From: Cyanidioschyzon merolae
Taxonomy: Eukaryota
Length of the DNA: 64,000 bases
Strand: one strand, 5' to 3'
Assembly (NCBI GenBank): GCA_000091205.1
Contig: AP006502.2
This document shows, piece after piece, positions 750 to 60,200 of this stretch. A model generated the notes under the pieces. That model ran no database searches. It was given only the letters and a program-made list of their open reading frames with translations, and had not been told where the DNA came from. Both the position numbers and the translations under genes were made by a program. Each line of letters opens with the position of its first letter. Positions within the stretch are counted from its first letter, which is position 1.

Positions 750-974
750 ACAAGAGTGAACTTTATTGGACAACCTCTCAAAGTCGAACTATATGAGAAA
801 AAGTTGGAAGCAGTAGTGGGTGGCCGCTCCAAAAAGACGGGAAGGCGTCTGCACCTCAGTTGAAGACTTCTTGTCGAGAGCGGGTTTCTCGCCACTACTG
901 TACACCGTTGGCGTCGTTCGACTTTCGAACGGCGTTGATGGTGCCACTATTCTGCCGTGTGTCATTCTGAGTGC

Positions 975-29980: not shown

Positions 29981-32728
29981 CTAAACAGATGGGCGGCGTG
30001 CATCCGCGACTCGGAGTACTTGCAATGGCCGAGTGAGTATTTCTTCTCTCTTCTTCTGATAAAGTTTCTCCAACGCAGACTTGCACGACTCATAGGTCTG
30101 CTCTAGTACGCGAAGCTCATCCTCAATTACCTGTGTCATATGGGGTCCACGTTCGCAAAGAGCGCGACTCTGCTCCTGCGCTTTGGCGCCGGCACGCAGC
30201 AGCGTCTCCATTGCTTTCATCATATCTCGTAGCGAGGGTGTTTTGCTCATCGCGTTTCCGCTGTCCTCATTCAAAGAAACGCCCACTGATCCTGTTGCTG
30301 TATGCAACGGTTCGTGACCCATCGACAGGAACAGCGAGCTGCAGCCCGACGCAGGTGCCTGTGCCGAATAGGTACGCTCGCGTGGCTGCTGTGTCCCGCG
30401 GGAGCGCCCTTCCGCTGCCGCTGCGTGTGACGATTCTCTTCTCGTTTCGCTGCGCTCTGCAGTGCGGACGTTTCCAGTATCCGATGCTCGACACCGATGA
30501 TCACCGTCACCGCTACCGTCATGATCTTCTTCTGGTTTTTCATCGGAGAGATTCGCCCACCAGCCCCGCGCGATGAGGTCGAGGGGCGCGTGCTCGAGTT
30601 CGCCTCGAAGCATCGCATCCGCAGCGGCGTTGCCGAGCGCACGCCGACCGTGTCGTTTGTCGTGTGCGGATGCAGCATCGAAACCGAGCAAGCATCGATG
30701 AATGCTCGCAAGCCATTCTCGAAGTCTATTGGTCGCGTCCACAAAGCTTCGATAGAGGGCACGCGATCGACGCATCAGCGCCAGGTGATTGCTTCCGAGC
30801 AAGAGCTGCTGTTCCAGCACAGATTCCATCATCTGATTCAAGGTTGCAAACAGCTGCATGGCGTCGTGAACGATAAGTCGCGCAGCCTCTTGCATGATTT
30901 CATTATGGACGTTCACCGAGGCCATGCTTTCGTTGACGTGCGCGTGCGGCACGGGACTTGTCGCCACCTCTACAACGCTCTCCAGGCGCACTTCTGTGAC
31001 TGCGTTCAGTTCATAGAGCAGCACTGGGATGACTTCTCGAAGCGCTCTCTCGAACGGGACGCGCTCCGAGAGCTCCTCGCCGAGTCTCGACGACACGACC
31101 CCCATTTCATCGACACAGCAGGGCGTCCGCTCTGCCGCCGGAGGTAACGATGCGAAACGATCGCCGAGCTCATCCAAAATTTTCGATTCCTGACGCTCGC
31201 CCAGGTAGAGGATGCGAAAACTTTCCAATCGTGTCCAGAGATACCGAGCGTATTCTCTGACAAAGAGCGAGCACGCTGTTGCTTCGGGCCTGGTGCGGCT
31301 TTCGTCGCGGAATGCCCGCGCCACAGCTTCCAAACTCATGACATGATGTGCAACCGCAGGCAACGGTTCAGCATTTGTCTCGCTAGAAACGCTACTTCCA
31401 CTGGCGGTCGCTGCACCAGCCTGACTCGAGCGCGTGATCAGACGGCGCGTCCAGTCACGTTGTCCGCGAGGGGACACGCCGCTTGAATGCGCAGCCAATC
31501 GCTCCAGTAAGTTGAGCATCGGCGAGTCGCTCGCTGTCCGTTGAGAACGTGTCGCCCCCGGGTGACTGCAGGCGTCGTCCGAATCGACGTCGTGGATGCG
31601 CGCTGGACGCTGCAGCCGCTCGTAGTAGGTCGCCCAGAGGCGAAACGCCACACTATCTGCGTAATGCGCTGCATCGCGCATGAGGCGATGCGCCACCATC
31701 AGAACCTTACAGACAATCCGCCAGTCCCGTTCCTGGCCGTGTCGCCAGAGCTTGCGAACAATGTCCCCGCAGAGCAGCATGCGTTCGACGGCGAGTGCAA
31801 CGTCTTCGGCACGCTCGCCGCCGTCGCTGGACCAGGTACCCGTCGGGGGATTCCGTTGACGATGATGTGGAAGCCGCTGGACGTGGAATGTCGATACCTT
31901 ATTGAGGCCGTACTGGGGTTTTGTGCTCAAGATCGCCACCGCAGTCTTTCTTGGGGCAGGCGTGTTGCTGTTGCTATTGTTGCTGCTGCTTTCGGGGCCC
32001 GGCTCCAGCGGCACGCCACCAGTCGTGGTGTGGGTCAGCGCGTCGGTGCCTCGCGCCTCGGGTGTCCCACCGGTCTGCGTGTTCTCAAGCAAATAAAAAA
32101 GGGCATCACCGCACCCTTGCAGTGAAGCTAACAGCGTCAGAACATATTTCTCTTTCGGGGCGGTGTACTTGGGCTTGCTCGCTTTGAGAACCGCTGCCTC
32201 GACGTCAGAGGAAAACGCCGCGGAGATCTTGCGTGTCAGTCTCTTCGTCGTATTCCCCAGCGTCGTTGCTTGAAGCGGCTTCCCCGGTGCCGACGTTCTG
32301 GTCCAATCGGACACCTCGCTTCCTGACGGAACAGGAGCCCTGCCCGGGTGCGTAGAAGCGCTCGTGCCAGTGAGGTCACCGGGTGGTAAACCTGCTCGCA
32401 GCGCCCTATCAGTTGTTTCACTCGTTGTACCCAAGTTTTTCCGAGGTGTCACTGAGTTCTTTTCGTATTGTACGTTCATGAAGAAAACTCGTGTAGCTCG
32501 CAGCTTCACCGTGCCCTGCTTCTGTTCGAAGGAGAAAATATGGAATTCATGCCGTTTTTGGCATCGACGCGCGCCTATACGGCGCTGCTCCGGCACAGCT
32601 GATGCGACATGGTCGTATCTTCTATAAAAGGTAAGTTTTGAATCTATTTTGACAGATTTATCTAGCCGATGCGCATCCGTGACGCACATCGTCATGGCAG
32701 TCATAGGACCTGCGCCTGGAGATACCAT
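29981..32728 (-). CDS. ANTH/ENTH-domain (AP180/CALM-like) clathrin-adaptor-type protein with a low-complexity insertion and a long C-terminal region. The true start is probably internal.
   Basis: AAVLKASKPKYTAPKEKYVLTLL resembles CKATTHEVMGPKKKHLDYL, and WRIVCKVLMVAHRLMRDAAHY resembles WVVVFKALVTVHHLMVHG in ANTH domains. The rest is non-repetitive ORF of 915 aa. Confidence 0.45.
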   Translation of the reverse strand: MVSPGAGPMTAMTMCVTDAHRLDKSVKIDSKLTFYRRYDHVASAVPEQRRIGARRCQKRHEFHIFSFEQKQGTVKLRATRVFFMNVQYEKNSVTPRKNLGTTSETTDRALRAGLPPGDLTGTSASTHPGRAPVPSGSEVSDWTRTSAPGKPLQATTLGNTTKRLTRKISAAFSSDVEAAVLKASKPKYTAPKEKYVLTLLASLQGCGDALFYLLENTQTGGTPEARGTDALTHTTTGGVPLEPGPESSSNNSNSNTPAPRKTAVAILSTKPQYGLNKVSTFHVQRLPHHRQRNPPTGTWSSDGGERAEDVALAVERMLLCGDIVRKLWRHGQERDWRIVCKVLMVAHRLMRDAAHYADSVAFRLWATYYERLQRPARIHDVDSDDACSHPGATRSQRTASDSPMLNLLERLAAHSSGVSPRGQRDWTRRLITRSSQAGAATASGSSVSSETNAEPLPAVAHHVMSLEAVARAFRDESRTRPEATACSLFVREYARYLWTRLESFRILYLGERQESKILDELGDRFASLPPAAERTPCCVDEMGVVSSRLGEELSERVPFERALREVIPVLLYELNAVTEVRLESVVEVATSPVPHAHVNESMASVNVHNEIMQEAARLIVHDAMQLFATLNQMMESVLEQQLLLGSNHLALMRRSRALYRSFVDATNRLREWLASIHRCLLGFDAASAHDKRHGRRALGNAAADAMLRGELEHAPLDLIARGWWANLSDEKPEEDHDGSGDGDHRCRASDTGNVRTAERSETRRESSHAAAAEGRSRGTQQPRERTYSAQAPASGCSSLFLSMGHEPLHTATGSVGVSLNEDSGNAMSKTPSLRDMMKAMETLLRAGAKAQEQSRALCERGPHMTQVIEDELRVLEQTYESCKSALEKLYQKKREEILTRPLQVLRVADARRPSV

Positions 32729-34332
32729 CTCGGACGCTGCTTCTGTCTATCCAGTACGCGCAGGTGCCTGGAGCCATGGATATGACTTGCTAGCGCTGAT
32801 CCTCTTCTAGTTGCAGGCTGCACGAGTTGGTATGATGTCACGCGTGACGCCGCGTCCCGCAAGGTGTCTGCTGGACGGCACTGTCTGCGGGTAACGGGTA
32901 TGGCGTGCTGCTACGGGTTGCTGTTACAGTGGACGCGCACCGCACAGGGGTTTTCAGTGCAGGTTTTGAGCGGGGCTCTGCGAATGCAAACACGAATGCT
33001 TGGGCGTCAGTGTGACTTGGCGTCACGTTCGTGCAGACCGAGCTTATCGGGAACGGGTGCACGATACACGCTGCCATTAGCTTCTGATCGCCCGGCGGAG
33101 GAGGTTGGTACGACGCAGTCTTGGTCGTTTCTCCTCAAGCCGTCGTTTCTTCTGAGGCACTTACTAAGACTCTTTACGGCTCGTCGGCATTCGTTTGGTG
33201 CAGCGGTAAAGCATCCAGGCGGCTTTTGGTGCACCAAGCGGTCCGTTTCGAGACTTGTTCACAGTGCGTTGCGCTTGTGACCGGGTTGCTTCGCATCCTT
33301 GGTCAATTGATATCGGAATATGTGTCACGCTTGTGTGGCCGCGCAACGACGTTGCCGGTTGATTGAAGACTCTCTTGACGGAGGCAAACATCGACGAGCG
33401 AGAAGTTTCCATTTGCTGCGATCGATTGCTTGAGTCTTTCGGAATCAAGCCTTGGTGTATATCTAGTTAATTCAGGCAATCGTGATCGCTATCTGCGAAA
33501 TTCCCGCTGTCTCGCCAACATCATCCGATTTGGGCTTCTGAGGCAGTGCGGGAACCATAGCAGTGGACGAACTTTGCGAATGGCCGTCCTCACGTCTGAG
33601 AACGACAAAGGAGTAACACCACACGCGTCAAGCATCCTAGCTGGAACTCTATGCAGTGTGGAACGATGTGGCATGCTCGCGAATACCGAATCATGGAAGA
33701 GCATTATCGTTTGTCCATTTTCTGAGCAAAGCGTTCCCGGTTTATGTATATTGGACTGCATCCTTGCTGGTTTGTTGATCATTCTGTACCAGAGGATTGC
33801 TCCGGGCGAGAAGAAGTTGTCCGGCGCTTGGCCACGTATCCCTTTTCATCAAAAGTCTTCAGCATTTTAGCAAAATGCACTTACTGATTGCTTAGAGATT
33901 TCCGCGAAAGTTCGCTCGACACAAAACCGCGGGACGTTTCGGATACATGTGAAATTTCCGAATGTTGTTTCCAAGGTGTTCGAGTCCTGGTGCGGAAAGT
34001 GCCTGCGCGCATAGTTGCTAGAGAAACCGCACCATCACAAGCCACTGAACTGCGTTTGCCTCATAATCTGTCATTCGGTGAGCTCACTGCACACCTTCCC
34101 GTGCACCTGTCTCTATTTCGTGCTCTGTCTCTGTGACGGTGTCAATGTACACCTGGAATCGTGGTGCATGTATGGCGCCCAGAATTTTTCGATAGGTAAC
34201 CTGCGGAATCGGGTACTGGAGTCGCCGTCATCGTCGTCCGCTCTCGTCCGAGCAGGAGTGCAGCCTGTGCGCGCTGGAGCACGTCCAGCCCAATACGATA
34301 CCAGGAAACGACGCGACGTATTGGTCATTTTC

Positions 34333-34944
34333 TTAGCCAGCACGTTGAACGCTTCGGCGAATACGCGTTTCGTGCTTCCGCGTTACCGAAGAAGTTCTCG
34401 ACCGCAGCGCGGTCTCATGGTTTTCTACCAAAGATCGTCCGCATGTGCGATTTCGACGCTCGTTTTCGCTTTGAATCAAGAATGCAATGCATCCGTCTTC
34501 GCTCAGTACGGTGCTCCGAGCGTCTAGATGGGCAATGAGTGCGCCTATCCGCTTGGTAATATGCCTGCTGGCGTCGTGCATGCGTGACTCCCGACAAAAT
34601 CCTGGCATGGAAAAGAAGAGCAGCATCATTTGCTTCCCGTTCAGATCTTCGGGTCCGTCCTCATGATTTAGAAGTACGACAACGGCCAAGACATCTTTCA
34701 ACTCAGGAGTTTTACGCTCTATCAAATCTTTCTCTTCATCTACCTGGATCAGTTGAACATGAGTTTCGTTGGTTTTCTTATAACTAGGTTTCATAAAGTG
34801 CATGCAGATAGATATTCCATCGTTCTCCATGGGCCATGTACATTGCTGTCGAGTTCCTCCCTGTAGATGAAGATCCTTGATAGAGCTCGTCGAATACGCT
34901 TTGGAAAGCGGTTTGAGTGCTTCGTATTTGGCCGCAGAGGCCAT
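34333..34944 (-). CDS. Hypothetical ORF (203 aa) inside the lower-GC island. It may be spurious or a decayed element.
   Basis: ORF only, with no recognisable motif. Lies in the compositionally atypical 33.4-37.1 kb region. Confidence 0.15.
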   Translation of the reverse strand: MASAAKYEALKPLSKAYSTSSIKDLHLQGGTRQQCTWPMENDGISICMHFMKPSYKKTNETHVQLIQVDEEKDLIERKTPELKDVLAVVVLLNHEDGPEDLNGKQMMLLFFSMPGFCRESRMHDASRHITKRIGALIAHLDARSTVLSEDGCIAFLIQSENERRNRTCGRSLVENHETALRSRTSSVTRKHETRIRRSVQRAG

Positions 34945-37038
34945 CCATCGTTCACTGGCAAGTCCATATAGTCAAGTACACAAATCTCGCTGGCGGTATC
35001 ATGGGCACTGTTCTCACACATACCGACAACATCGAATGGAGAACCTTGGGGAGGCTAGGGCGCCCGCATACTGCACTTAGATAGTCTGCTTTGCTCTGGG
35101 CAGCTATCATCAGAAACACGCAGCATCGCAAGGTGCAAGCAAGGTAGGCAAACATCATGTTTGATCCATCGTTTGGATGCCACGTCCGCCGATCCGAGGC
35201 CGCGAACAGTGCCATAAGCTCGGATGATCCGAAGCGACTTTCGCTCTTGTCACAACATGCCGTCCAAAGTCGCCACATTCTAGTTCCACCGCCGCCACTA
35301 GCCCATCATTTGCATGAATAGACATCCCGAAGATGCATTCCACCAATCCCCATTTTTCTGGACACGCGGCGTGATGCTACAACGTCTTCAGAGTATCCCA
35401 TGTGAGGCGTTCGATATTCACCGGCATGTAGTGTCTGAGGTTGATTTGATACTTTTTGGAACCTGTGCTCCAGATGCTCCGATCGCCCACGTCGCCCAGC
35501 TACGATTCAGGGGTGCTCCGGAAACCACCAGGGCTTTTCTTTGGTCATCGAATCTGGCAGTATGGCATCTTATTTCTAGGGCATCTTTTGCGTCCTCGCA
35601 AGGAATTGATTGAAAAATTTGCGAATAATCTGGATAGCGGGCAACTCTGGGCCCGGAACTCCCACCTGCAGTTGCTTGAACAGAGGCTTCAAGGCGAGGA
35701 AGTCTAGTAGAGCGTTCCGCGGATAAGCAGCTTCGCGATCTGGAATCGTATCCTGCGATCTTCGGCGTCATGATGTCGAACGACCCGTCTACGAGCTCCT
35801 GAGCCTCATACGGCATTCGATATCGGAGAAGACGCCTGTGGCTGAATTGTGCTATGGAGAATAGACTGGAGCGGAGAGCAGCTCAACGTCGATCCGAGCA
35901 ACGTGTTCCTTGACTACGCTCGAGTGACGAAATGCGACCTTGTCTGAAAGCATCATTGAGGAATTTGGATAGAGGAAGCCCCGAAAACTGCTTCAATGAA
36001 CGATGCAGTTTTGACGAATCCAATATCTTTTGCGATTCTGGAGGAGGACTATATGATTGCATATTAGCTAAGGCTGATGTTTGTCGTACGGCTCGCTTGT
36101 CGCTTCTTAACGAACACCGATCTGTATCGGTTTGGGAATCCATTTCCAGGACAAGCATCTCCCTTGGATGAGGTCTCATCGAGTGAGACGAAGACTCGTT
36201 CCTCCTGTGCTCATTTTCGCGTTCCAATTCGAAATCGATAGCGTGTTGATCAAAGCGCGATCATCAGTTATAGAAGCGTGCTTCTTTCTTTGTTCATCCG
36301 TGTCTTGCTATTACCGATCGTATCAAAGGCCCGGAAACTTTACATTCTATGGGTTATTTCATGGCCTTTCTTCGAGAATAAATGGAATGGAATGAACTGA
36401 TCAGGAGATCGTAGTGTCAACAGAGATTCATACCTTCCGTTTTTAACTTACGACAGGCAGAACAGGGACCAGGAAAAGTACGGTTTAGCTACCTGCTGAA
36501 GGTAGAACAAATTAATTGTAAGTGTCCGGGCATCTCCCACAAGCTAGCAGTGACAGCATAACGTCTCGTCGCGACATGTCCCCAACTGCAATGTACATTT
36601 CTTCTGTTGAATACATTCCATCATAAACAAACCAAAAGAAAAGTGCCTGCTAGTACAGGCATTCCAGAATGCTGTTCCCCAAGTACAATCGTGTTTGACG
36701 GTACGGCTGATAGCCACCACGCTCGCTGGGCATTCCACGACGCCGCAACAGGCATGCTGGTTTCGCAACGACACCTGTTAGCATGTCGATAACCAAACTG
36801 ACATGGTGAGGATATTTCAATAAAACATCAAAGCGTCTTACTTTGAAGGGAATACTGCCGGTTGTCCGGGGCGCTTTTCGTCCGAAAGGCTGCAAACTGT
36901 CCAGGTGCCAACCATCAAGGACGCAACGATGATTTCTTCCTACCCAATGCGTATACGACCGCGAAAGACGTGCTTCGATCCTCGCTAACCACGCACTGGA
37001 CCATGCCGTTCTGCATGAATCGGAGAAACACCGATGAT

Positions 37039-37217
37039 CAAGAGAAGCTTGCCGCTAACCAGAATGGAGCCGGAGTAGCTCCTCGGGGAGCCACAAAAAG
37101 CACTGGGAACATGGGCACAATATAGTCCGGCTGGGTGACAAGATCACGTAATGTTCGGACACACACGGTATCGCGTGGCAACCGTGCCGCATCAAGTCCG
37201 ATATCGTCAAGAAGAAC
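37039..37217 (-). CDS. TTC4: TTC4/Cns1-like, putative exon 2 (C-terminal end of the CNS1 domain), separated from exon 1 by an intron of about 406 nt (37218-37623).
   Basis: A GTAAGT donor sits immediately after codon W. A phase-0 acceptor ...aaacag|GTT restores the frame VLLDDIGLDAARLPRDTVCVRTLRDLVTQPDYIVPMFPVLFVAPRG, which aligns with the human TTC4 C-terminus DEDRAELYRVPAKSTLLQVLQHQRYFVKALTPAFLVCVGSSP. Confidence 0.5.
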
Positions 37218-37623
37218 CTGTTTCCAAGTGCCTTGCTCCTCTGGAGGTAACAGGGAGCCACAAAACTCGTTATCCTGTACTCTTGTCAGGTCACGTAAGA
37301 GCGCTGGGTCGCCGACATCGACCAGCGTTCGGGTCCATTGCGTTGCATACCTGGCGTGCAGAAGTGCATCTCACTGGGCGGTTAGTTCTGTGTTCTGCAT
37401 ATCGCGGTGGTCACTCTACGAGCATCACAGTATACGTTTCGCTCTCAGACGGGTAAACGGCGTTTCGGGGTGCGAGGGCAACGCGCGTCGAAGCGCCCGT
37501 TGCAAAAGACTTGCGCAACGCATCACGGACCCGTTCTCTACTCACGGGTCAGATATGATCAAGTCCGTCATCCTCGAACGGGGTCCAGTTGGGCAGCATG
37601 CTCGCTGCCTGATGCGAAGAAAC

Positions 37624-38625
37624 TTACCAAAAAGCAACTCGATCGCAGCGATATCGTCCTTCTGGGTCGAAGGTTAACGCAGGCGGTCCCTCAACGGGTA
37701 ATAGATCAGAAAAGAGCGCTTGCAGCTCTGCGTCATCGTCAACGTTTTCGAAAAAATCGCTTTGTTGAACTAACGGGTACACCACCATGAACGGCCAGCT
37801 GAACTTGATGGACACAGTGCTTTCCGAATCAGGATTGGGCTCGTCCCGTGCCACGGGTACGGGTTTCGGTTGCCAGTTTGAGACTTTTTTCTGTTGCGCA
37901 AATAGCGGCATCCCGAGGCGAATTCGCTGGCGTTCTAGGGTATCGAGCAAGCGCTGACTCTGGTCGACTCGCTGCTGGAGCAGGGCGTCCTTCTCAGCGA
38001 GCAAGCGCTGGGCACGTACCATCTCCTCGGCGATTCGTTCTTCGAGACGCTGAAGCGCTCTGCGCTCGAGCACATGTTCCGGGGCTTTGGTGCGTTCCAA
38101 GCCCTGTTCGCAAAATGTTCGCGCTTCAGGCAGCTTGCCCAGAGCTAGAGCACACGCACTTGCCCGATAAAAGGCTTTCGGGTGTTCCAGACCGCACGAA
38201 CGGATACACTGCTGTGCATCATGCAGGCCTCGCGCATAGTTTCCAAGTCGTCGATGTACCTCCGCTCGGTTTAGGTAGAGTGCACCTCGAACGGTTGAGG
38301 AGACTCCTGGTAAAGCTAGTGCTTCCGTGTACGACGCCATCGCCTGATGGAACAACGCGTGAGCACGTTTTCGTAACGTCGCCACGCTTTGCTCACCGCC
38401 AGGGAGTGTTAAATCTGCACCGGGATCATTTCCGCGGTCGAGTAGACGGCAGCCAAGGCGGTATCTCTGGTTGCCACGTTGACGCAAAAGCTCGGCCTGC
38501 TCATCAGCGGTCTCGTCGCCTTGTATCAGACGTCGCAGGGCCGAGTCAGCCGGAAGCTCTTCAGCGTTCTCAGCAAAAAGGTCTGGAAGTAGATCGTTAT
38601 TCTCGGAAAACGAGTGCTCTTTCAT
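37624..38625 (-). CDS. TTC4: TTC4/Cns1-like TPR co-chaperone, exon 1 (TPR repeats plus the first part of the CNS1/wheel domain).
   Basis: TPR region (QRGNQRYRLG..., YLNRAEVHRRLGNYARGLHDAQQCI, KAFYRASACALALGKLPEA) and WPFMVVYPLVQQSDFF..DPEGRYRCDRVAFW align with human TTC4 WPVLFLYPEYAQSDFI..DLEQKYCPDNLEVYFE. The ORF ends in TGG|TAAGT. Confidence 0.8.
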   Translation of the reverse strand: MKEHSFSENNDLLPDLFAENAEELPADSALRRLIQGDETADEQAELLRQRGNQRYRLGCRLLDRGNDPGADLTLPGGEQSVATLRKRAHALFHQAMASYTEALALPGVSSTVRGALYLNRAEVHRRLGNYARGLHDAQQCIRSCGLEHPKAFYRASACALALGKLPEARTFCEQGLERTKAPEHVLERRALQRLEERIAEEMVRAQRLLAEKDALLQQRVDQSQRLLDTLERQRIRLGMPLFAQQKKVSNWQPKPVPVARDEPNPDSESTVSIKFSWPFMVVYPLVQQSDFFENVDDDAELQALFSDLLPVEGPPALTFDPEGRYRCDRVAFW

Positions 38626-40232
38626 GGACGTTCTCGGATGCCGAACGCTCCGAAGCCGGCCGCCGCCGTGCAGCTGTAGTTGCTGAACCTCACGGATACC
38701 GAGCGGTTACGCTGCACCGCCTTTTTTGACGCGTTCTGAAACCCTCTTTCGCTTTACAAACCGCTGAATTATCGCCAACCCACTTTATGGCACTTGTCAA
38801 TGCCGCAACTAAAGCCGCTCGGCACGAAGATCCGACTCCCTATCCCTACACAGTACGTATCAAGGGGTGCAGGGAATACCAGCGGATCGAAATTGTCGCT
38901 CAGCGGCTGGCGATGCATTGCTGCAGCGGCGCGAGCGCCCAGCTTCGTACGGGCGCGCTCATGTGATTCTCCCGAGTGCGCCTTCATTGAGGCCGGTGCA
39001 CGACGAGCAGTCCCTGCAACGAATGCGACGAGCATTTTCCAGTATCAGCAACGACTATGATACCAGGAGTACGTGTTCGACTCCCGATCAAGGTCTGACA
39101 CGGTGAAGCGACACCGACGCTGCGCGCTTTACAAACTACACTAGTGTTTATTCAGCTAGTCCACATTTGTACAAGATTCAAGCAATTTGTTGCGGAAGAA
39201 AGATTTTTGTGTGTGCCTCAAAAAAGATTGCACCTCATATCAATGAGACAAATGCTAAGGTATCACCCGGGAGCTGGGATAGTCGTTGAACCACTGCAAT
39301 CAGTGTCTGGTTTCATGACGTGTTCACCTGAAGCGGCGATCAGCGTTCGTTTCGCATGCGGTCTCGGATACCTGCACCAAGGCAATCGTGGCAAGCATTT
39401 GTTTATTCTGTTTTATAGCTGGGAAGGAGAGATTTGGGAACGATTTTCCCACAACGAGCAGCATCGCATGGGTTGCATCAGTGTGCTCCAAATGAACCAG
39501 AGGCTATGAGAATGCTTTGTTTCCGAGTGGATAGAGTCAACGGCGACCTTGTATGCTGCTGCTTACCTGTACCCCAAAGTAGCCGAATGCCAGCGCAAAA
39601 GCCTGCTGGACTGTCTGCGTGCGATGTTTCACATGCATGTAAGCGTATCCATAGAACCTGGCACACATACGCCTTGTGGAGGTACCCGCAAGGGCCCCGC
39701 CACACTGTCCTGTTACCATTCGGCGACCGCGAAGGCAGCGCACCCAGGATCGAAGCAAGCGCCTAGGGCAGGCTCAGGGCTCGCCAATAGGTCGTTGAAG
39801 CTTTGATGACTCTGTCGAAGAGGGAAAATCTGGAACGAGCTTACAGAAGGTGTTAGCCTCTGCGCACGAACGGATATCTCTTGCTCGCATATCAGCAGCA
39901 GCACCAGCAGCAGCACTTGAACATACTGTAGCGTCTGTTCGAATCATCGAAACGTGTCCGGGATGCAGGATCCCATCAACGATCCTGGATATCCCCGACT
40001 GCGCAATGGGCATCGGTATCTGGGAAATCATCTATCCTTCCCCAAAGTACCTTTAAGAGATCCTCCACTCCATCACCAACGCTACCTCATCGTGCTACCT
40101 TGCTTGCTTTTCGCATCAACGATGCAGCGCGCTGGGCACCGACACGCCGGCCGCCGGCGTTCAATAGAGCTCCCCTAGGCTCGATATACGACCGCGTTGT
40201 GTTACGATTATTTTTTGCGTAGGTGAGTTTCC

Positions 40233-45257: not shown

Positions 45258-46656
45258 AGATTGGGCGAGCAGGTCTCTGGAAGCGGCCAGAGTCTGAAAG
45301 AATGGCGCATATTCGATCTTTATGGATCATGGATCTGTCCCGCTGGTCCACGCCAGTGGGAAGCACGCTGGTCAAAGTCCCGCCCGCGCTACGCCCAAGT
45401 CGAACTGGCATAGAACAGGTCCTTTCGCACTGACGTACAAGTCCATGTTTGGGTCTCCTCTGACCGTCATCAGCGCCGGCTGCTGCGGGGCTATTTCTGG
45501 GACTGCCTCGTTTGCTTTTCTTATATCTGCGGCTTTCAATTCGCCGGTTTCCCCGGTTCTTCCATATCCGTTCATAGCAGTCGATTTCGAGATTTGATGG
45601 CAGCATTCAAATCCCAAATTCGCAGCTTCCAGTTGTTCCCGACACACTGCACGCAAAGACGCTAGTCGTGCACTACGCTTCGCTTACCCGTTTTGACTTA
45701 TTCGTGTATAGCCTTCAGTGTGCACGTCGCAGTGGCGATATCTGGCTGTGATCAGGTATTCCCATGCAGCCGCCGGACATTTTCCGCCCCTGAAGGCTGC
45801 CCTGCTGCCCGTGAACGCTTGCTTCATCGATTGGCGCATGCGTTTGACGGGTAAACAAGATGCTCCTGGATGTCGTTCTCCATAGTCGCGCCCAGTACCG
45901 CGTCCTACGATGACGGGCGCTTCTTCTAGCCGATCGTCTCGAAATGTACGCCGTCCGCTGCTAGTGCAAACGCACGCTGTCTCATGCGGTAGAGGATTTG
46001 TGGAACGCGATGTCGTCCACAATGAAACAAGTACCGAGAAGAAAACCCAGGCTGGCGACTGCGTAGAGAAAACTCGATCCGTTGGCGTTCCCGTCGAGCA
46101 TAAGCGCTGATGCATTCTCCACTGGGAGTGAGCGATGCGACGAAGCAAGTCCGAGTCCAAGACCCTATTCGATGTAAACAAAAGAGAGGGCGGCGCCTGA
46201 GCGCATATCGCGTAAGAGGTATCGAGCTGCTGTGAAATGCGGTTTCGTAGATGGCTACCAATACAAGAGGGGAATTTCGGCATTCGAACGTCATCGATCA
46301 CTTGACATGACAAGTCTGGCAACTTTGTGGCATGTGTTTGTGAAGATGTCGTCGAGCGACGGAATCGACATTGTTTGATAGTCAATTCAGCGACGCAAAA
46401 TGCTCCACTCATGTGTTGCCTTGAAACGGTACGACCGACCAACCTGAAGACCATATGATTTGACCATACTGCACATTGGGAACGAAAAACGTCTGCAGGC
46501 TTCCACCTATGCATAGGATCCATACATCAGTTCTCTTATGAACCAGTTTTTTCGAGGTTGACGCGAATCATCTTGATTCCGATAGCGTTACCAAATCCAG
46601 CGAAGAAGCCTGGACGGAGCCTCTCCGAAAAGACACCCGAGCATTCCCCAAAACTA

Positions 46657-46670
46657 CGTATATATATATA
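46657..46670. repeat. (TA)7 dinucleotide run in the divergent intergenic region between the GT-like and RER genes.
   Basis: tatatatatatata seen directly. Confidence 0.6.
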
Positions 46671-46944
46671 TACGTACGCTCTCCTTGCTGCATTTTGAAT
46701 CTCGAAGCTGCACATCGAAGCATCTTCGGAAAAAGATGTCAAGGCAGGAACAGAGCGACCAGTACAGTGTTACATGTGAATGCCCAATGGGTGTAGAACT
46801 CGACAGCGCAGCGCTATAGCGCTATGCCACCGATCCCGTGTTGGGAGCACTGGCTCCAGCTCCTTCCCCTATGCTCCGAATATCACATCATGCCTCATCC
46901 AGAGCTGTTTGTATTGATCTCGGCACAAATTCCGATAAAAAACG

Positions 46945-48408
46945 TTGCCTGATGCTGCAGTGGATGTGCTCGCGAAACGACGCCATGCCGTCTTGACCAC
47001 TCCTGGTACGTTGTCGTTGCCTCCGGTTTCTCAAGCAACTGCTGCGTGTAGAATGACAGCGGCTAGGCCAGTCAAAGCATTTTTATCGGTTTCGAATTGT
47101 TGGTACCTTTCATCTAGAGATCATTCCTCACGCCGCTCGACTTCTGGAAACAGCGACTTGCATCGAGCGCGTTCTCAGCAGGCAGTGCGCTTCCCTCGGA
47201 CACGTTGCCTACCGAGTCGCTGCGTTGGCCGAGTCAGACGCCACGGACTTGCCCTTGAAACGCTGCTCCTACAGTTGCAAGGCTTGGGGCCGCAGAAATC
47301 GCCCTTGGGAAGACAGCAGCTTCAAGTCCCAAACGACAGGGGCACAGACTTAGCTCCGACGCTCGCTGTTGCTTCTGGTGACGATGGCGGTTGCGGGGGC
47401 CGGATCAGCACGCCCGGTCGAGGATGGTACTATCGCTGGGGAGCTGGTGGGTACGCATCTTCGTCCGATGAAAGGGACAACGGCGATGCGGAGCACCAGA
47501 GCTTCGAGCAACCAGGACAGGAGGCTGCCGGTCACGCGAGCTCCGGTACCGGGAGTGACGCGTCCGACCACGAACAGCTGCTGCGAAAGATGAACCGCCC
47601 TGTGGAATCTGTGCCACGGGAACTCTTTACTCTAGACCTGAAAACTGCGCAAACGTACCTTGTAGCAACGGCAAGCGGCCTACCTCGGTTCCTCACCGAC
47701 CGCTTTCCCGCATGGCAAGCGAAAATGCTCGCTGATCCGAACTTTTTCTTCAAACTTGTCATGGAGGAAACCGTCGGCATGGGCCTCTGTCTGACTGGGG
47801 TCGTTCTTGCTCGTGGCGATCGTCTCATGAAAGAACTAGATTTTGTGCTCATCGACACCCTGGTGGGCGCAGCGCTCAGCTTCGTGCTCCTGTGGTTGCT
47901 CGCACCCAGTGCAACGATGCAGTCGCTTCATCAGAGACATCTATCGAGTTCGTCAAATGCAGGACCAGTGAGCGCTCTGCAACATTATTTTCGCACACTT
48001 CCATCATGTGCGTTGGCACCAGCATCGTCAGCGACGTCCTACTCATGGAGTCAACGAGCGGTTGCCTTTCTCTACAAGGGATCGCTCTTTGCAATCGCCG
48101 GTTTCATGGCCAGTGTGATTGGCACCTCCATGGGCTACGCTTTATTGGCTCTACGGAAGCGCCTCACCGGAAAGGAACCGGAAAACCGAATGCCTCCCAT
48201 TCTCATCATGAGTCTGGGTTGGGCAAGTTTCATGTTCGTTTCCGCGAATCCTCGGTACCAGGTGGTGACGGCGGCAGAGCTTTTCATTTATGAAAAGGCG
48301 TCACCTGCGGTTGCCAAAGCCAGCACGGCTATTCTGCGCACCGTAAACAGTATTGCCGGAGGTGCAACTTGGGTGCTCTGGGCTCGAGCGTTTGGACTCA
48401 ACCAGTAG
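46945..48408 (+). CDS. RETICULATA-related (DUF3411) chloroplast-envelope-type membrane protein with a long low-complexity N-terminal region. The start is uncertain.
   Basis: DPNFFFKLVMEETVGMGLCLTGVVLARGDRLMKELDFVLIDTLVGAALSFVLLWLLAPS and downstream TM segments match the conserved core of RER/DUF3411 proteins as recalled from memory. Confidence 0.5.
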   Translation: MPDAAVDVLAKRRHAVLTTPGTLSLPPVSQATAACRMTAARPVKAFLSVSNCWYLSSRDHSSRRSTSGNSDLHRARSQQAVRFPRTRCLPSRCVGRVRRHGLALETLLLQLQGLGPQKSPLGRQQLQVPNDRGTDLAPTLAVASGDDGGCGGRISTPGRGWYYRWGAGGYASSSDERDNGDAEHQSFEQPGQEAAGHASSGTGSDASDHEQLLRKMNRPVESVPRELFTLDLKTAQTYLVATASGLPRFLTDRFPAWQAKMLADPNFFFKLVMEETVGMGLCLTGVVLARGDRLMKELDFVLIDTLVGAALSFVLLWLLAPSATMQSLHQRHLSSSSNAGPVSALQHYFRTLPSCALAPASSATSYSWSQRAVAFLYKGSLFAIAGFMASVIGTSMGYALLALRKRLTGKEPENRMPPILIMSLGWASFMFVSANPRYQVVTAAELFIYEKASPAVAKASTAILRTVNSIAGGATWVLWARAFGLNQ

Positions 48409-50378
48409 TGTTCGCTCAAGAGCTTCCTCTAGAAGTAAAAGTTTTGGTCTTAGAGGGGAAGCATGTCAAGAAATGGCGGTCGAGGCGCGTTACAGCCTCC
48501 CGGTGCCACACATTGTTTTCCTCTGACTCGTCTCGGAACTCGATGTTGGCACTGCAAAGCCATTTTATGAATGTGGGCCAAGTCGGAATTTATCGCTCTC
48601 GCCCTAGCCGCTTCGAAAATTGACTGGTCTCTGTATTCTAGCGCTTTCCATGGTAAGTTGCGGGTGCTCGTCCAGAAGTGCGCTGCTAGATGCAACAGGA
48701 GACCACCGACAACGATCAGGGCTTGATTCGAAGCGGAACAGGGCGCTCACTGAGTATCCAGAGCACCTGTTTTTTTTTGAGGAAAATTGAGACGTATCAG
48801 CGCCAAGATCCACAAATACGATCGTGCGCGATTCTATTCAGAGCCTCGCATACCCGTTACAGACTTGAATGAAACACTGAACTGCTCGCCCGGTTCCCGC
48901 CATGAGCGTATTTTTCCAGACATTCTTTCGGTGTCGAGACCCCGCATTCCGAGTGCTGCCATGAACGCTTGCAGATCCATGCGTCGTTTTGAGATTCTCG
49001 GTCATTTTTTTCGGATTGGCTCTTTCGACGCTTTAGAACTGGAATTCGTCAAGTCATCGGAATCGCGATGATTCTCGACGTCCTCGTAAAAGGTTCGTAA
49101 AGTGACCAATATCCTTATCCAATACATTCCTAGAAGCCTCCGTTATTCTGCTCTGATTGCAAGCAGCATGCTCGAATCACGCATTCTTCGGGTTTTCGAA
49201 CTTTCTGTTTCGAGGCACGTCGTCGGCGCAGGAATTCATTCCGCTGGATTGACAAGGAAAAGTACACAGCGTCTTCTATTGACGCATGGTTCACAGGCTC
49301 ATGCAGAACATTCACTGAACGTCCCATGTCCAATCATCGATTCCGTTCGAAAGACAAATCGTCCACTCTTTGTGACCATCGATGAAACGGCCTTGGAAAA
49401 CAGCCTGATGCGTCTGACGGCTTATGCTCCATGAGGCTCACTTCTCTTCTGTGTGCATGGAAACGTGTCGTGGACGTGGTCATGCGTCATCGCAACGATC
49501 GCTTCCTGTCGAGCGTGCGCCACAGCTTTGCACGAAGCGGGCGTAGACGGATCGAAATATCTTGACGACTTGGCCAGTTTGTATTTTTCTTCTGGTACGT
49601 GTCTCATCAAGGACGTTCCCGTGTCTCATAGCTCCTCAGTCGAATGGAACAGCATACGACTGCTCATGCAGCCGACAGCAAAGTCGTCAATGGAATCCCG
49701 CAGAAGAAGCCCATGATCGTAGTGTCCGGCATGGAGCACAGTTACGGAGTAGCGCAACCATGGGAGCATTCCGTAGCTAACACGCGCACGTACCGAGCAA
49801 TGAAGCGAGCGTCAATGCGGTACAGGTCAGCGCTCGCAGAAGCAGGTATGGTGTACATCTGGGAACGCTTGACCAGAGCCAAATGTTACCGTTGCGAAGC
49901 ACGCGACGGAGCTACACGCAAAGAACATGAAAACGGCAAGTGAAACGCAGATCGCAACAACTGCCGGTGCTTGGAATGCGTCGAAAACAGCCGGAAGCTA
50001 CGCACTAGGCACTTGCAAGCTGCCATCAATATCCTTTGACCGCTGAAAATGCATCTGTAGGGATCCGAGCGACCAGCGTATTGAGAGCCGGAGCTCGACC
50101 AGAGGAATACCAATCCGTCGCGCAAAAAACCCACAAATGCTGGTTTTCCTGACAGCGGAAAGTGTCCCAAACGTTCGCATGTACGCTCCGCTAGTAGACC
50201 AGTTCCATTTCCCTTCGATCTTGGATCAACGGCTACTGGTACTACAAGAATCTGCACGGCAGACAAACGATTACGATTCCGAAATGCTTTGCATACCTTT
50301 CATGCGTACAGACCAAGATCCTGCTTCATTGCTAGCTCGATCCTTGCCGGCCATTTTCACCGAAACGCTCAGGGAACC

Positions 50379-51725
50379 TCAACTTGCAACATCTACGAAT
50401 GCCGGCACGCTACGCGTCCCCGTTGAGTCATCTGCATTCTCGAGTAGCTGCTTCTCTTTCGGAGACTCGCTACTCGGCGAACCGCTACTCCTCAATCGCT
50501 GTTCCGTGTCTGGGTTGCTTCCTTTAGACGACTTCGCTTGTCGTTCGGCTTTCTCAGCCGATCGCAGCCGGGCAGCGCGTCGCTTCTGTTTCTTTGTCGA
50601 CCTGGCTGCAGCGCGTTGCTGCTGTTGTTTCTCCATCTTGACTAAATCGCGTTCCCAGATGTCCGCCATCAGCTTGTAGATTCGCAACGCGGTGGTTGCA
50701 TCCTCTACGGAATCGTGACCCGGCCCGTGGGCGGTCCCCTTCTGAATTACCTGATCCAGGAGTTCTGCAGCGAGCGTTCGAAGGGACGGCGTTCGAAAGG
50801 TCCGCATGGGCAGCAGCCTCCGTAACCGCAGATAATGGGCAGTGTCCCGAATGTGTCGACGAGGATGACTCAGTTGCAGAACCGTGAGATCCTTGCGAAG
50901 CTCGTGACCCACAATGATCCGACCTTTCATTAACGAGGCTACTGCGCGTTGTGCCTCCGCAAACGGGACGCAGCTCGGATCTTGCAAATGATGAGGCTGG
51001 ATCCCACTGTAGGGAGTACGAAAGTCAACCACTCGGGTATCCACCTGCACAAAGCGATCATAGAGCACGGCCTCATCGTAGTCAACGACGGATATGCGGG
51101 CAAGTGCATCCGTGGACCCGCCTGGGCCTATGCCCACAAACTCACCGTCAAGAGCGATAATCGAGCCCAAAGGTGCTGCTCGCTCCTGTGGATAGAGTCC
51201 AAGAGGTCCGGCTTTTCGCAAAGGCTCCTTTTCTGGAGCGTGCAGCTCTGCTCGGACGTTTTCCAAAGAGGAACCCTCCGTGTCGTTTGGTTGTTTCGTT
51301 CCATCCGTGCGAACGCTTGTCGCTACTCGGTCAGAAGAGCGGTGGCGTTCAGGCGATGGCTTGACCTGAGCTGGACTTGCAGCTGGCACGCTTTCGCCAA
51401 GTGATTGGTTGCTAGTGCCCGAGTCTCCCAAGTTACCGATTGCATCACTGTTTTGTTTGGAGACGGAACTTGTTGCAGAAGACCGATGCAGTTGTCGTGG
51501 GGCCTGTCCCGTATTCAGCTGTTGCTTCAGCGCTCTCCAGTTATCGTCCGCAGTTGGCAGACGCTTCTTGCGCCGACCTCGTGGCTGCCCGCTCTCTACT
51601 TGCGGTCGTTCAAGGTCGTCTGCGCTTGCTTCCACTTGCTGGCTACTGCCCGTGAGGCATTTTACCCCCAGGTCCTCTTCGGACACCGTCTTGCCGCTGT
51701 TCTTTGCTGACTTGGACACCGTCAT
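50379..51725 (-). CDS. REX4: REX4/ISG20-like DEDDh 3'-5' exoribonuclease with low-complexity N- and C-terminal extensions.
   Basis: IIALDGEFVG (Exo I, DxE), IIVGHELRKDLTVLQL (Exo II) and HDSVEDATTALRIYK (Exo III, H...D) lie in a 448-aa ORF. Confidence 0.75.
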   Translation of the reverse strand: MTVSKSAKNSGKTVSEEDLGVKCLTGSSQQVEASADDLERPQVESGQPRGRRKKRLPTADDNWRALKQQLNTGQAPRQLHRSSATSSVSKQNSDAIGNLGDSGTSNQSLGESVPAASPAQVKPSPERHRSSDRVATSVRTDGTKQPNDTEGSSLENVRAELHAPEKEPLRKAGPLGLYPQERAAPLGSIIALDGEFVGIGPGGSTDALARISVVDYDEAVLYDRFVQVDTRVVDFRTPYSGIQPHHLQDPSCVPFAEAQRAVASLMKGRIIVGHELRKDLTVLQLSHPRRHIRDTAHYLRLRRLLPMRTFRTPSLRTLAAELLDQVIQKGTAHGPGHDSVEDATTALRIYKLMADIWERDLVKMEKQQQQRAAARSTKKQKRRAARLRSAEKAERQAKSSKGSNPDTEQRLRSSGSPSSESPKEKQLLENADDSTGTRSVPAFVDVAS

Positions 51726-58812: not shown

Positions 58813-58991
58813 ATGTGCATGGATAGAGCGTGGGAAGAGACTCCAGCTCATTTATCGGTGCTTGAAGCTTGTCATCGCTGCTCGGCTCCGTAGTCGCCCG
58901 TGTAAGAAAAGCGTGATCGATCTGGGAGCATCTTCGGTGCTGGATGCGTTCCCGCCACCTTTCCCGTACGCAGACAAGAGAGCAACACTGT

Positions 58992-59034
58992 GTCTCTGTT
59001 TCTGTCTCTGTCTCTCTCTGTGTGTGTATGTGTG
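58992..59034. repeat. (CT)n/(GT)n compound dinucleotide microsatellite.
   Basis: ctctgtttctgtctctgtctctctctgtgtgtgtatgtgtgtg seen directly. Confidence 0.8.
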
Positions 59035-59141
59035 TGAACGCTGACTCGAGGACGTTGGCTCCGGAGAGCTGTGTGCTCACTCGGCGCGTCGTCCTGCAAA
59101 ATAAGGGCAGGCGCCAGCACCCGCATGCCGCCTTTGCCCAG

Positions 59142-59780
59142 ATGAACACCGTTGGCGGCTCGAGATATCGGGGCGAGCGTCTTGTTCCTCAGTGCCAACG
59201 CATGGCGAGGTCTACTGGGACCTCTTTTAAGGAGAAACGTAGGCGTTTGGCCTCGGGAAGCGTTCTGTTTTCCAAGTGCTTACGCAAGTCATGTTGCGTT
59301 TGCCTGGACGCGACGCTGTCTGACTTTGAGAAAGCGGTTTATCACGTGGCCGCGAGTATCGAGCCGGGACGTGTCGCGACATACGGCACCATAGCGCAGG
59401 TGATTAAGCCAACGGAAGGCGCGCGAGCTGCTCGAGCCGTTGGCACTGCGTTGCGGAAGAATCCTTACTGGAAAGAGGGCTGCGTTCCTAAAGTTCCTTG
59501 CCACCGTGTCGTAGCGGCAGATCGGACGCTCGGTGGTTACATGGGCGTTAAAGACCCCAAAAGCACGCAGCTGGAGCGGAAACGCTGCATCATGCTTGAA
59601 GAGGGCGTGCCGCTGACGCGAAACAAGCGTGGTCAATGGGTCGTTGTGGAAAACGTCGCTGGAGGCGGCGGCACGAGCGCTGGGCAGCCGCTTCTGAGCC
59701 CCGCAGAGCTGCGCGCAATAGCTGCTACCTTCGCCAGCGCTTCTAGTCTTTCACCTGAAGGGTGTTCGACCCCCAGATGA
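59142..59780 (+). CDS. MGMT: O6-methylguanine-DNA methyltransferase (MGMT/Ogt), short form. Only the C-terminal DNA-binding/active-site domain is recognisable. The start is either ATG 59142 or ATG 59202.
   Basis: DFEKAVYHVAASIEPGRVATYGTIA...AVGTALRKNP...VPCHRVVAADRTLGGY contains the HTH, the Asn hinge and the PCHRV active-site cysteine motif. Confidence 0.75.
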   Translation: MNTVGGSRYRGERLVPQCQRMARSTGTSFKEKRRRLASGSVLFSKCLRKSCCVCLDATLSDFEKAVYHVAASIEPGRVATYGTIAQVIKPTEGARAARAVGTALRKNPYWKEGCVPKVPCHRVVAADRTLGGYMGVKDPKSTQLERKRCIMLEEGVPLTRNKRGQWVVVENVAGGGGTSAGQPLLSPAELRAIAATFASASSLSPEGCSTPR

Positions 59781-59799
59781 GTGTCATCAAAAGCGTTTT

Positions 59800-60200
59800 C
59801 GCGGTTTACATTAGATGCGTTCGAAGTGCGTTCCTTTGAAGAAATAAAAATCCAAGGGAGATGTATGAGCGTACAAGTCGGGGATCCTAGCGGGCCGTCC
59901 TAACCAGATTCTACGAAGACATGAAAAAATGCTCATCGCACCGACCCTCGATCGAAGAGGAACATATTCCGAAAAAGATGAAGAAGAGGGGAGACAGGCG
60001 AGAAATGGTGTTTGCTGCACGTCTCGATAACGAGACTGTAGTGGCACAGGGGCCGCGCGTTCGATGAACCCTTGCACTGGTGCGTTCAACCAGCGTCAAT
60101 GCACGCGAGGAGTTCGTGAACCGAGTCTTCAATGCCACCATCAATATCAGACGATGTGTGGTACTAAAGACGAGACCCGCGAAGCTGGCGCCGTTTATGT
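59800..60200 (+). pseudogene. Second, more degraded copy of the TnpB/Fanzor-like nuclease 3' region (about 75% nucleotide identity to 540-749). It has frameshifts and a stop.
   Basis: Translation R*TLALVRSTSVNAREEFVNRVFNATINIRRCVVLKTRP aligns with copy 1 GLLALVSTTSDGKKRMEFVN*DFNAAINIRRCAVLERRP. The catalytic D is replaced by V. Upstream, LDAFEVRSF corresponds to VDEFRTSYT in another frame. Confidence 0.55.

Follow-up and report, generated by a model that had tools for sequence, protein, structure and literature searches.

What occupies a 4309-bp non-coding gap on chromosome 20 (1,621,617 bp) of Cyanidioschyzon merolae 10D, and why is it poor in both GC and genes? The gap was analysed within a stretch of 64,000 nucleotides (the window), seven ORFs of which match C. 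merolae 10D proteins exactly (BAM83473, 83478, 83481 (exon 1), 83482, 83483, 83485 and 83488). Its boundaries, the start of the ORF of an ANTH-domain protein and the stop codon of a TTC4/Cns1-like gene, were taken from the ORF map and the TTC4 exons:

29981–32728, minus strand: ORF of an ANTH-domain protein, the left flank (ORF map; PF07651 ANTH match in the orthologue of a related species)
32729–37037, no strand: the island proper, a non-coding gap of 4309 bp
37038–38625, minus strand: TTC4/Cns1-like TPR protein BAM83481.1, the right flank (100% tblastn match)
37627–38625, 37350–37626 and 37041–37349, minus strand: exon 1, intron and exon 2 of TTC4 (exon 2 with stop codon 37038–37349; tblastn of BAM83481.1)

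A preliminary description, made from the letters alone, had put a low-GC, gene-poor island at 33400–37100. The low-GC island stands, but the true non-coding gap is 32729–37037, and the TTC4 intron and exon 2 had gone unseen. In the BAM order, 83478 is DMC1, 83479 and 83480 are two genes which we infer to be TAF2 and ANTH, 83481 is TTC4 and 83482 is adenylate kinase. The numbers are consecutive and leave none spare for a gene in the gap, which implies that no protein gene is annotated in 32729–37037; the island thus appears to be without an annotated protein gene in strain 10D.

The GC dip is real, and it is modest. In sliding windows over the 64 kb, 33351–37050 is the 3.7-kb stretch with the lowest GC content (0.495, against a median of 0.569 with an SD of 0.022, i.e. 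~3.4 SD below); the lowest value that does not overlap it is 0.523. Between 33 and 37 kb, successive 1-kb bins reach GC contents of 0.510, 0.508, 0.519 and 0.466, with ~0.56 for the whole window, and the lowest 1-kb value of the window (0.458 at 35851–36850) also falls within the island. The segment at 36240–36500 that had been pointed out as AT-richer is indeed so, with the 300-bp minimum of 0.427 at 36250–36549. The lack of long ORFs was confirmed as well: the longest stretch of the 64-kb window without a stop-to-stop frame of ≥250 aa is 32747–37626 (4880 bp; the runner-up measures 2473 bp). A satellite or tandem repeat, which had not been apparent at first sight, can be discarded, as TRF with a minimum score of 30 found none.

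Homology of the island to anything else was first revealed by a repeat copy at the left edge of the window. It belongs to a family that has a further, internally deleted member near the right end:

1–937, plus strand: ordinary element copy, 3' 930 bp, cut at the window edge (nhmmer E = 1.5e-304; 83–86% DNA identity to three fetched copies)
59741–60293, plus strand: third copy, internally deleted and reduced to one 5' and one 3' piece (nhmmer, element positions 186–424 at E = 6.6e-13 and 2332–2571 at E = 9.9e-22)

The copy at 1–937 carries a 182-aa Fanzor1 ORF fragment at 138–686, and the third copy has a protein-level Fanzor1 match at 60068–60550. The three fetched copies are 2.45–2.67 kb long, have a GC content of 0.48–0.49 and are 71–86% identical to each other in DNA; the family consensus restores an ORF of ~720 aa. 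There are 248 homologous protein clusters of truncated ORFs, all of which are metagenomic and none of which is annotated at NCBI. Fanzor1 is a eukaryotic TnpB-like RuvC nuclease. One Fanzor1 family, CMe-1A, has been reported in C. merolae, with ~150 copies of ~3 kb, no TIRs and ~80% DNA identity to the consensus (Bao & Jurka 2013, Mob DNA 4:12), and the multi-copy family of the window fits this published element. Going by copy number, size and the WSSV link, the 253 interspersed repeats of 3.2 kb described earlier, whose truncated ORF is WSSV-like (WSV486-like; Nozaki et al. 2007, BMC Biol 5:28), are probably CMe-1A as well.

Two Fanzor1 profiles were used, A1 (C. merolae family) and A3 (36 distant full-length relatives); searched against the PDB, A3 matches the Fanzor1 proteins of Parasitella parasitica (9CF0, E = 1.8e-17) and Guillardia theta (9CER, E = 6e-5), while A1 found nothing useful there, so that significance was reached by A3 alone. 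When the C. merolae consensus was searched directly against the PDB, the best match was SpuFz1 (8GKH), at E = 1.4 only. Pfam and NCBIfam searches with the 138–686 ORF, the consensus and family members yielded only sub-threshold matches to Cas12f1-like_TNB (E = 0.2 for the best C. merolae sequence); one distant relative, P0245, matches this domain at E = 0.0023. An AlphaFold2 model of family member P0134, built from the 36-sequence alignment, had a pLDDT of 36.6 and no usable fold. D, E and RDxNAAxNI are invariant in the 36 full-length proteins distantly related to the C. merolae family, which keep the D...E...RDxNAAxNI arrangement of Fanzor1 9CF0 and 9CER, of Spizellomyces punctatus 8GKH and of bacterial TnpB.

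When the two profiles were run with hmmsearch against 1813 six-frame pieces of the window, the whole-window six-frame background serving as control, the core of the island was found to contain a degenerate relative of this family:

33901–35487, minus strand: degenerate Fanzor1 (TnpB-like) pseudogene, matched extent; four collinear blocks in changing frames (hmmsearch, tblastn, phmmer, tblastx, nhmmer)
35386–35487, minus strand: relic block 1, Fanzor1 N-terminal half, A3 positions 136–169, GDRSIWSTGSKKYQINLRHYMPVNIERL (E = 2e-4 with A3)
34510–34971, minus strand: relic block 2, A3 positions 280–424, containing ENDGISICMHFMKP and the RuvC motif I site (E = 2.1e-8 with A3)
34333–34944, minus strand: 203-aa ORF, sharing the frame of block 2; an open piece of the Fanzor1 pseudogene and not an independent gene
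34143–34379, minus strand: relic block 3, A3 positions 467–544, RuvC motif II region, in a frame different from that of block 2
33901–33966, minus strand: relic block 4, A3 positions 582–603, tail after RuvC motif III, NIRKFHMYPKRPAVLCRANFRG (E = 0.014 with A3)

Block 3 scores E = 1.3e-13 with A1, 4.7e-11 with the consensus and 1.4e-3 with A3; its sequence RFLVSYWAGRAPARTGCTPA...RFRRLPIEKFWAPYMHH aligns to RLVVAYGAGRWKT.KGTTPA...RFVTIPVDEFRTSYTHH of the family, and stops are seen in its translation. Block 2 reaches E = 3e-4 with A1, and block 1 matches the C. merolae consensus at E of about 0.01 (0.007 in tblastn). Block 4 is weak by itself, its order, strand and spacing being all as expected. 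In tblastx, 34475–34038 of the island (minus strand) matches 198–629 of the window (plus strand) at E = 5.5e-16, and tblastn of the consensus against the island gives a summed E of 1.9e-18. In a search with the conceptual translation of the relic, 148 family proteins were matched at E < 1e-3, with 2.4e-22 for the top match. Elsewhere in the 64 kb, apart from the three element sites, neither A1 nor A3 found anything better than E of about 2–3. Altogether, positions 136–603 of the 615 in A3 are matched; the first ~135 profile positions have no detectable counterpart in the island.

At the DNA level, nhmmer gives collinear but marginal matches of the island to the element profile (E = 0.078 and E = 2), and the ends of the element cannot be fixed. 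Extrapolation from the profile would place the coding relic at ~33865–35890 and the element at ~33.65–36.25 kb. A blastn self-comparison found no second DNA-level copy of the island within the window; the link is visible at the protein level only, where the related sequences make up a multi-copy family. A look for terminal repeats and target-site duplications at the island element gave none, there being only short direct and inverted repeats at chance level, and to our knowledge none are known for the CMe-1A family.

The relic is severely damaged. Its four blocks lie in frames 0, 0, 2 and 0 with stops between them, which requires two or more frameshifts and one or more in-frame stops, and one continuous ORF of ~600–720 aa is absent from the island copy. 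The intact RuvC triad (D of motif I, E of motif II and the D of RDxNAAxNI) is not kept: the family DPG of motif I has become TPE in block 2, the catalytic E of motif II has become K in block 3, and of motif III the tail alone is recognisable. Because of the frameshifts, the stops and the loss of motif I and of the motif II E, the island copy cannot be an active nuclease, and it differs in these same respects from the solved Fanzor1 structures. The suggestion of a decayed transposon, one of several made for this island, is therefore borne out by a frameshifted, stop-ridden Fanzor1 pseudogene in its core.

The relic resembles CMe-1A in its host genome, its protein family and the extent of the A3 match. 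Both also have a broken or truncated ORF, TIRs were found in neither, and the 64-kb window contains two ordinary copies besides the relic. Its inferred length of ~2.6 kb is similar to that of CMe-1A (~3 kb) and of the 3.2-kb repeats of Nozaki et al., and its GC content is ~0.50 compared to 0.49 (0.501 for the island core at 33681–36280, 0.48–0.49 for CMe-1A-type copies). Unlike the ordinary copies, however, it is barely detectable in DNA, and its amino-acid identity to any family member is only 25–30%, whereas ordinary copies share 63–98% among themselves. On these sequence comparisons, the island copy would be either older by far than the main burst or derived from a separate, extinct sub-lineage.

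The element does not account for the whole island. The left 950 bp have a GC content of 0.55 and are ordinary spacer; the promoter of the ANTH gene must lie in this left part. On the other side of the relic is the segment of lowest GC:

36240–36850, no strand: AT-richest part of the island (300-bp GC 0.43–0.47), flanked by the extrapolated relic 5' end and by the TTC4 3' end

This segment is presumed to be spacer together with the 3'-UTR and terminator of TTC4, and possibly includes element 5' sequence that is no longer recognisable. From 36.3 to 37.0 kb, nhmmer, tblastx and Rfam found homology to nothing. Part of the island is thus unexplained spacer, without homology in the AT-richest 0.7 kb.

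In a related species (locus L008) the gene order ANTH–TTC4 is kept. Translated homology stops at TTC4 exon 2 and restarts in the ANTH gene, where it spans 32368–29981; the interval between measures 1.13 kb there versus 4.6 kb here, and no Fanzor match was found in 21 kb of the related species. With two genomes compared and no outgroup, the difference in spacer length reflects either insertion or retention here or a deletion in the relative.

Could the Fanzor similarity be chance or compositional, in a long spacer of no particular origin? The DNA-level matches are marginal, as described above, and two of the four protein blocks are weak when taken alone (E = 0.014 and 2e-4). However, the other two are strong against 1813 pieces (E = 1.3e-13 and E = 2e-8), all four lie on one strand in profile order and with the right spacing, the rest of the window yields nothing comparable, and the conceptual translation has 148 family matches; we give this explanation almost no credence. 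Somewhat more can be said for an unannotated functional gene or long ncRNA hidden in the island, such as an orphan or domesticated Fanzor fragment encoded by the 203-aa ORF, although we consider it very unlikely. This ORF is uninterrupted in each of the five strain sequences examined and has been called as a gene by metagenome pipelines, and the interspersed repeats of C. merolae are transcribed (Nozaki et al. 2007, BMC Biol 5:28). But the strain sequences are ~99% identical, and the open frame in all five therefore carries no evidence of selection; with an SNP density of ~1.6% in the island and 0.9–1.7% in the flanking genes, the strain comparison is uninformative about constraint. The ORF has no Pfam domain and, among 5.8 billion proteins, no homologue outside its own locus; its database relatives come only from the same locus in 99%-identical environmental strains, none from NCBI annotation. 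Moreover, its alignment falls in the middle part of Fanzor1, where the catalytic DPG is destroyed, and continues in another frame. The preliminary description had rightly called it unconvincing as a gene, yet it is an informative pseudogene fragment and not noise. Pfam searches with ten island ORFs gave no match, and an ordinary missed protein gene was rejected on this ground and for want of a homologue outside the locus. The proposed large regulatory or ncRNA locus is likewise unsupported: no match reached the Rfam gathering threshold over the window, the island matched none of the Rfam families at E ≤ 1, no tRNA or tmRNA was found, and there is no conservation in the syntenic relative. A cluster of tRNA or ncRNA genes was dismissed for lack of Rfam and tRNA matches.

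The most far-reaching proposal was that of a centromere. On this reading, CENH3 would bind the island as the regional centromere of chromosome 20, a short, AT-shifted region devoid of genes and perhaps founded on the old transposon. The kind of organism behind this idea had been guessed correctly: as quoted in later literature, Kanesaki et al. (2015, FEBS Lett 589:1219) describe C. merolae centromeres as one 2–3-kb region per chromosome with ~48.4% GC, compared to 55% genome-wide, and no shared motif. To judge from sequence composition, the island resembles them in being short, gene-free, repeat-free and AT-shifted, and with 4.3 kb free of genes and a GC content of 49.5% over 3.7 kb and 45.8% over the lowest 1 kb it is the extreme of the window. 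This combination of gene-free DNA and ~48% GC is not specific, however, since any one of the ~150–253 Fanzor elements should have this composition and size (GC 0.48–0.49, ~2.6–3.2 kb), so that a low-GC, gene-free signature is ~10 times likelier to mark a transposon than one of 20 centromeres. TTC4 ranks as number 4754 when the proteins are ordered by chromosome; of the 4775 nuclear genes, 4291 belong to chromosomes 1–19 and 484 to chromosome 20. Assuming sequential numbering, this gene index would put the locus ~94–96% along chromosome 20, near one end, with CMT560C a few genes before. The one centromere taken for comparison, that of chromosome 2, has a published position near the middle (213 of 457 kb). 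In addition, strain-to-strain SNP density is no higher in the island than in its flanks. A centromere is therefore highly improbable here: its low GC would already be explained by the transposon origin, and the claim is unsupported, there being nothing specific for a centromere in the island. If it were true, TnpB-type relics would supply AT-shifted, gene-free DNA for the sequence-independent centromeres of C. merolae; a chromatin function of this kind could be superimposed on a transposon that is itself dead.

The island is thus very probably a long spacer that holds an ancient, dead Fanzor1-element copy of the CMe-1A family, with the GC dip and the gene poverty as by-products of transposon origin and neutral decay. 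In the lineage of Cyanidioschyzon, an element of ~2.6 kb would have entered, or been kept in, the ANTH–TTC4 interval, would then have lost its function and decayed almost to the detection limit, and would now be without a function of its own; the spacer would be long and AT-shifted because it holds this element. Of the remaining ~1.7 kb, the left part (GC 0.55) would be the promoter region of ANTH, and the right part (GC 0.47) spacer together with the 3' end of TTC4.

Beyond annotation the consequences are small: one of the larger gene-free gaps of a very compact, fully sequenced genome would be a transposon fossil, and one candidate for a centromere or an ncRNA would drop out. The relic may be absent from the published CMe-1A counts, and profile searches can find copies which escape repeat counts made at the DNA level. 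Unless Fanzor elements are masked first, islands of low GC and few genes are poor predictors of centromeres in C. merolae. Finally, given the low protein identity of the relic to a family whose ordinary copies are so much closer to each other, Fanzor1 elements had probably been active in this lineage well ahead of the burst from which today's 150–250 copies stem.

The low-GC, gene-poor island described in the preliminary description proved to be real. GC contents in the 1-kb bins across 33-37 kb are 0.510, 0.508, 0.519 and 0.466, compared with ~0.56 for the window, and among all 3.7-kb sliding windows in the 64 kb the lowest GC belongs to 33351-37050 (0.495; median 0.569, SD 0.022; second independent minimum 0.523). 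The lowest-GC 1-kb stretch of the window (35851-36850, 0.458) also lies within the island, and the minimum at the 300-bp scale (0.427, 36250-36549) falls on the AT-rich spot to which the preliminary description had pointed. The accompanying gene poverty is equally borne out: stop-to-stop frames of 250 aa or more are absent over 4880 bp (32747-37626), the longest such run in the window and twice the length of the next. Second to the island in low GC is 46101-50400 (0.522 over 4.3 kb), which includes a 2-kb gap poor in ORFs (48406-50381, GC 0.508) and in which no Fanzor match turned up.

The host had been guessed to be an intron-poor alga, and the window indeed comes from Cyanidioschyzon merolae 10D. 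Seven ORFs are exact matches to 10D proteins (BAM83473, 83478, 83481 (exon 1), 83482, 83483, 83485 and 83488), all of which are on chromosome 20 (1,621,617 bp). The right neighbour of the island is a TTC4/Cns1-like TPR gene, with an annotated protein of 436 aa vs 333 aa for the open frame. The genes bordering the island are:

29981-32728, minus strand: ORF of the ANTH-domain gene, left neighbour
37038-37040, minus strand: TTC4 stop codon, from exon mapping
37041-37349, minus strand: TTC4 exon 2 (100% tblastn match)
37350-37626, minus strand: TTC4 intron, 277 bp, GTAAGT donor (100% tblastn match)
37627-38625, minus strand: TTC4 exon 1 (100% tblastn match)

Introns are rare in C. merolae (0.5% of genes; Nozaki 2007), and that of TTC4 is among the very few of this genome. 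The two gene models of Cyanidiococcus TTC4 (332 aa and 433 aa) suggest that it is conserved there.

As the ANTH ORF starts at 32728 and the TTC4 stop codon occupies 37038-37040, the non-coding gap is 32729-37037 (4309 bp). In the BAM numbering, 83478 is DMC1, the next two numbers serve two genes (TAF2 and ANTH) and 83481 is TTC4, which leaves no number for the gap; we infer that no protein gene is annotated in it. Among the proteins on record there is no exact match to ANTH products of 915, 907, 904 or 902 aa, and the annotated 10D start or gene structure therefore differs from the simple ORF. Given the ANTH start, the spacer could be up to ~360 bp longer. Codons 1 to ~120 of the ANTH ORF (32368-32728, minus strand) have no counterpart in a related species, and the N-terminus is variable among strains, at 12-14 SNPs per 500 bp. 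Close upstream of where the ANTH ORF begins, four metagenome contigs of 6130-6246 bp, drawn from different samples and aligned to 32748-39009, share an end to within 12 bp (32748-32759), their opposite ends lying between ~38841 and 39009; strain polymorphism at the variable N-terminus could account for the shared ends.

The clue to the identity of the island was a protein-level match with another part of the window: 34475-34038 (minus strand) matches 198-629 (plus strand) with E=5.5e-16. The latter segment belongs to an ordinary copy of a Fanzor1 element, whose presence explains the GC of 0.494 in the first kilobase. Its ORF is homologous to 248 clusters of truncated ORFs (116-316 aa, 63-98% identity to this ORF); hot-spring metagenomes are the source of all of them, and NCBI annotates none. 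Three copies fetched with their flanks gave elements of 2.45-2.67 kb with 71-86% identity between copies and a GC of 0.48-0.49, and one continuous ORF of ~720 aa is recovered in their consensus. The C-terminal half of this ORF carries GxDPGNTN, VDEFRTS and NRDFNAAINI, which we take to be the RuvC I, II and III motifs of TnpB/Fanzor. With a profile built from 13 family members, 1303 relatives were retrieved from a library of 1.84 billion proteins, many of them 600-740 aa long and matching at the C-terminus. An alignment of 36 distant relatives (the broad profile A3) shows no variation in the D of DPG, the E of DEF or R-D-x-N-x-A-x-N, and A3 matches the solved Fanzor1 structures of Parasitella parasitica (9CF0, E=1.8e-17) and Guillardia theta (9CER, E=6e-5).

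A single Fanzor1 family, CMe-1A, has been described in C. merolae, with ~150 copies of ~3 kb, ~80% identity to the consensus and no TIRs, together with TE-N2_CMe, a 635-bp derivative in ~70 copies (Bao & Jurka 2013). Nozaki et al. (2007) reported 253 interspersed 3.2-kb repeats that together account for ~5% of the genome; the truncated ORF in each of them has weak similarity to a protein of white spot syndrome virus, a virus which also carries Fanzor1 (Bao & Jurka 2013). From these descriptions, CMe-1A and the 253 repeats are probably the same element. On one environmental contig, a full copy (3214-5801) is accompanied by a partial 3' fragment (1355-1867) ~1.3 kb upstream, which shows local clustering of these repeats.

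A3 and A1, the profile of the C. merolae family, were run against the complete six-frame translation of the window (1813 pieces). The three element sites of the window are:

1-937, plus strand: ordinary Fanzor1 copy at the window start, 3' 930 bp, with ORF 138-686 (182 aa)
35487-35386, minus strand: relic block 1, A3 positions 136-169, E=2e-4
34971-34510, minus strand: relic block 2, A3 positions 280-424, E=2.1e-8
34379-34143, minus strand: relic block 3, A3 positions 467-544, E=1.4e-3; A1 E=1.3e-13
33966-33901, minus strand: relic block 4, A3 positions 582-603, E=0.014
59741-60293, plus strand: internally deleted copy, ~550 bp, element positions ~186-424 and 2332-2571 only

No match outside these sites was better than E ~2-3, and the search of the whole window thus serves as its own control. 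The deleted copy lies between an MGMT-like gene (58944-59780) and the gene after it, and is possibly a non-autonomous derivative of a similar kind to TE-N2_CMe.

All four island blocks are on the minus strand and in profile order. The reconstructed consensus also matches the island (summed tblastn E=1.9e-18, plus an N-terminal block with E=0.007), and a DNA profile gave marginal, collinear matches only (E=0.078 and E=2). Blocks 1-4 lie in frames 0, 0, 2 and 0 with stops between them, TPE replaces DPG, a lysine is aligned with the motif II glutamate, and the conceptual translation matches 148 family proteins at E<1e-3 with only 24-39% identity. Because of these features, the island core appears from its sequence to be a dead Fanzor1 gene, far more decayed than the ordinary copies. 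The 203-aa ORF at 34333-34944 (minus strand), present as previously described, is the fragment of this gene in the frame of block 2. Extrapolation from the profile and the untranslated ends of the element puts its probable span at ~33.65-36.25 kb (core GC 0.501). The left remainder (32729-33680, GC 0.55) must include the promoter of ANTH; the right one (36281-37013, GC 0.47) abuts the TTC4 3' end and matches nothing.

Of the origins initially proposed, a decayed transposon is upheld by the collinear Fanzor1 blocks. The ncRNA locus is not: no Rfam family was found in the island even at E<=1, nor any tRNA. None of 10 island ORFs matched Pfam, and the 203-aa ORF has no relatives among 5.8 billion proteins beyond the same locus in environmental strains, so that a hidden gene or ncRNA is very doubtful. 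Tandem repeats, which the preliminary description had not seen either, were not found in the island. That it is the centromere of chromosome 20 is more doubtful still. Its composition and emptiness do fit C. merolae centromeres, each of which is quoted from Kanesaki 2015 as one CENH3 region, 2-3 kb long, with ~48.4% GC and no motif, but the fit to the 150-253 Fanzor elements is just as good. In the chromosome-ordered protein set TTC4 is number 4754, with 4291 genes on chromosomes 1-19 and 484 on chromosome 20; by this gene-index arithmetic the island would lie near the right chromosome end, with which the tentative assignment of the methyltransferase at 5951-7390 to CMT560C (VTE4) is consistent. 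Least probable is a chance similarity to Fanzor, which the strong E-values and the collinearity of the blocks make very unlikely.

The island is also present in environmental strains that share ~99% identity with 10D, and its SNP density is no different from that of the flanks; these strains are therefore uninformative on constraint. In the related species (TTC4 amino-acid identity 54%, the same figure as for Cyanidiococcus), the gene order adenylate kinase - TTC4 - ANTH - TAF2 is conserved, and its locus gave no Fanzor match. Translated homology to this locus stops at TTC4 exon 2 and restarts in ANTH 1.13 kb further on, compared with 4.6 kb in C. merolae; thus ~3.3 kb occur in the C. merolae lineage only. 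This length fits one element, and both an insertion here and a deletion in the relative are compatible with it.

The island is thus real but ordinary: the spacer holds a fossil copy from a known transposon family, and what is new is the very diverged copy, not the family. Its value is modest and lies in the annotation of the C. merolae genome, ~5% of which consists of such elements. It also warns against reading low-GC, gene-free islands in C. merolae as centromeres, since they are usually Fanzor elements.
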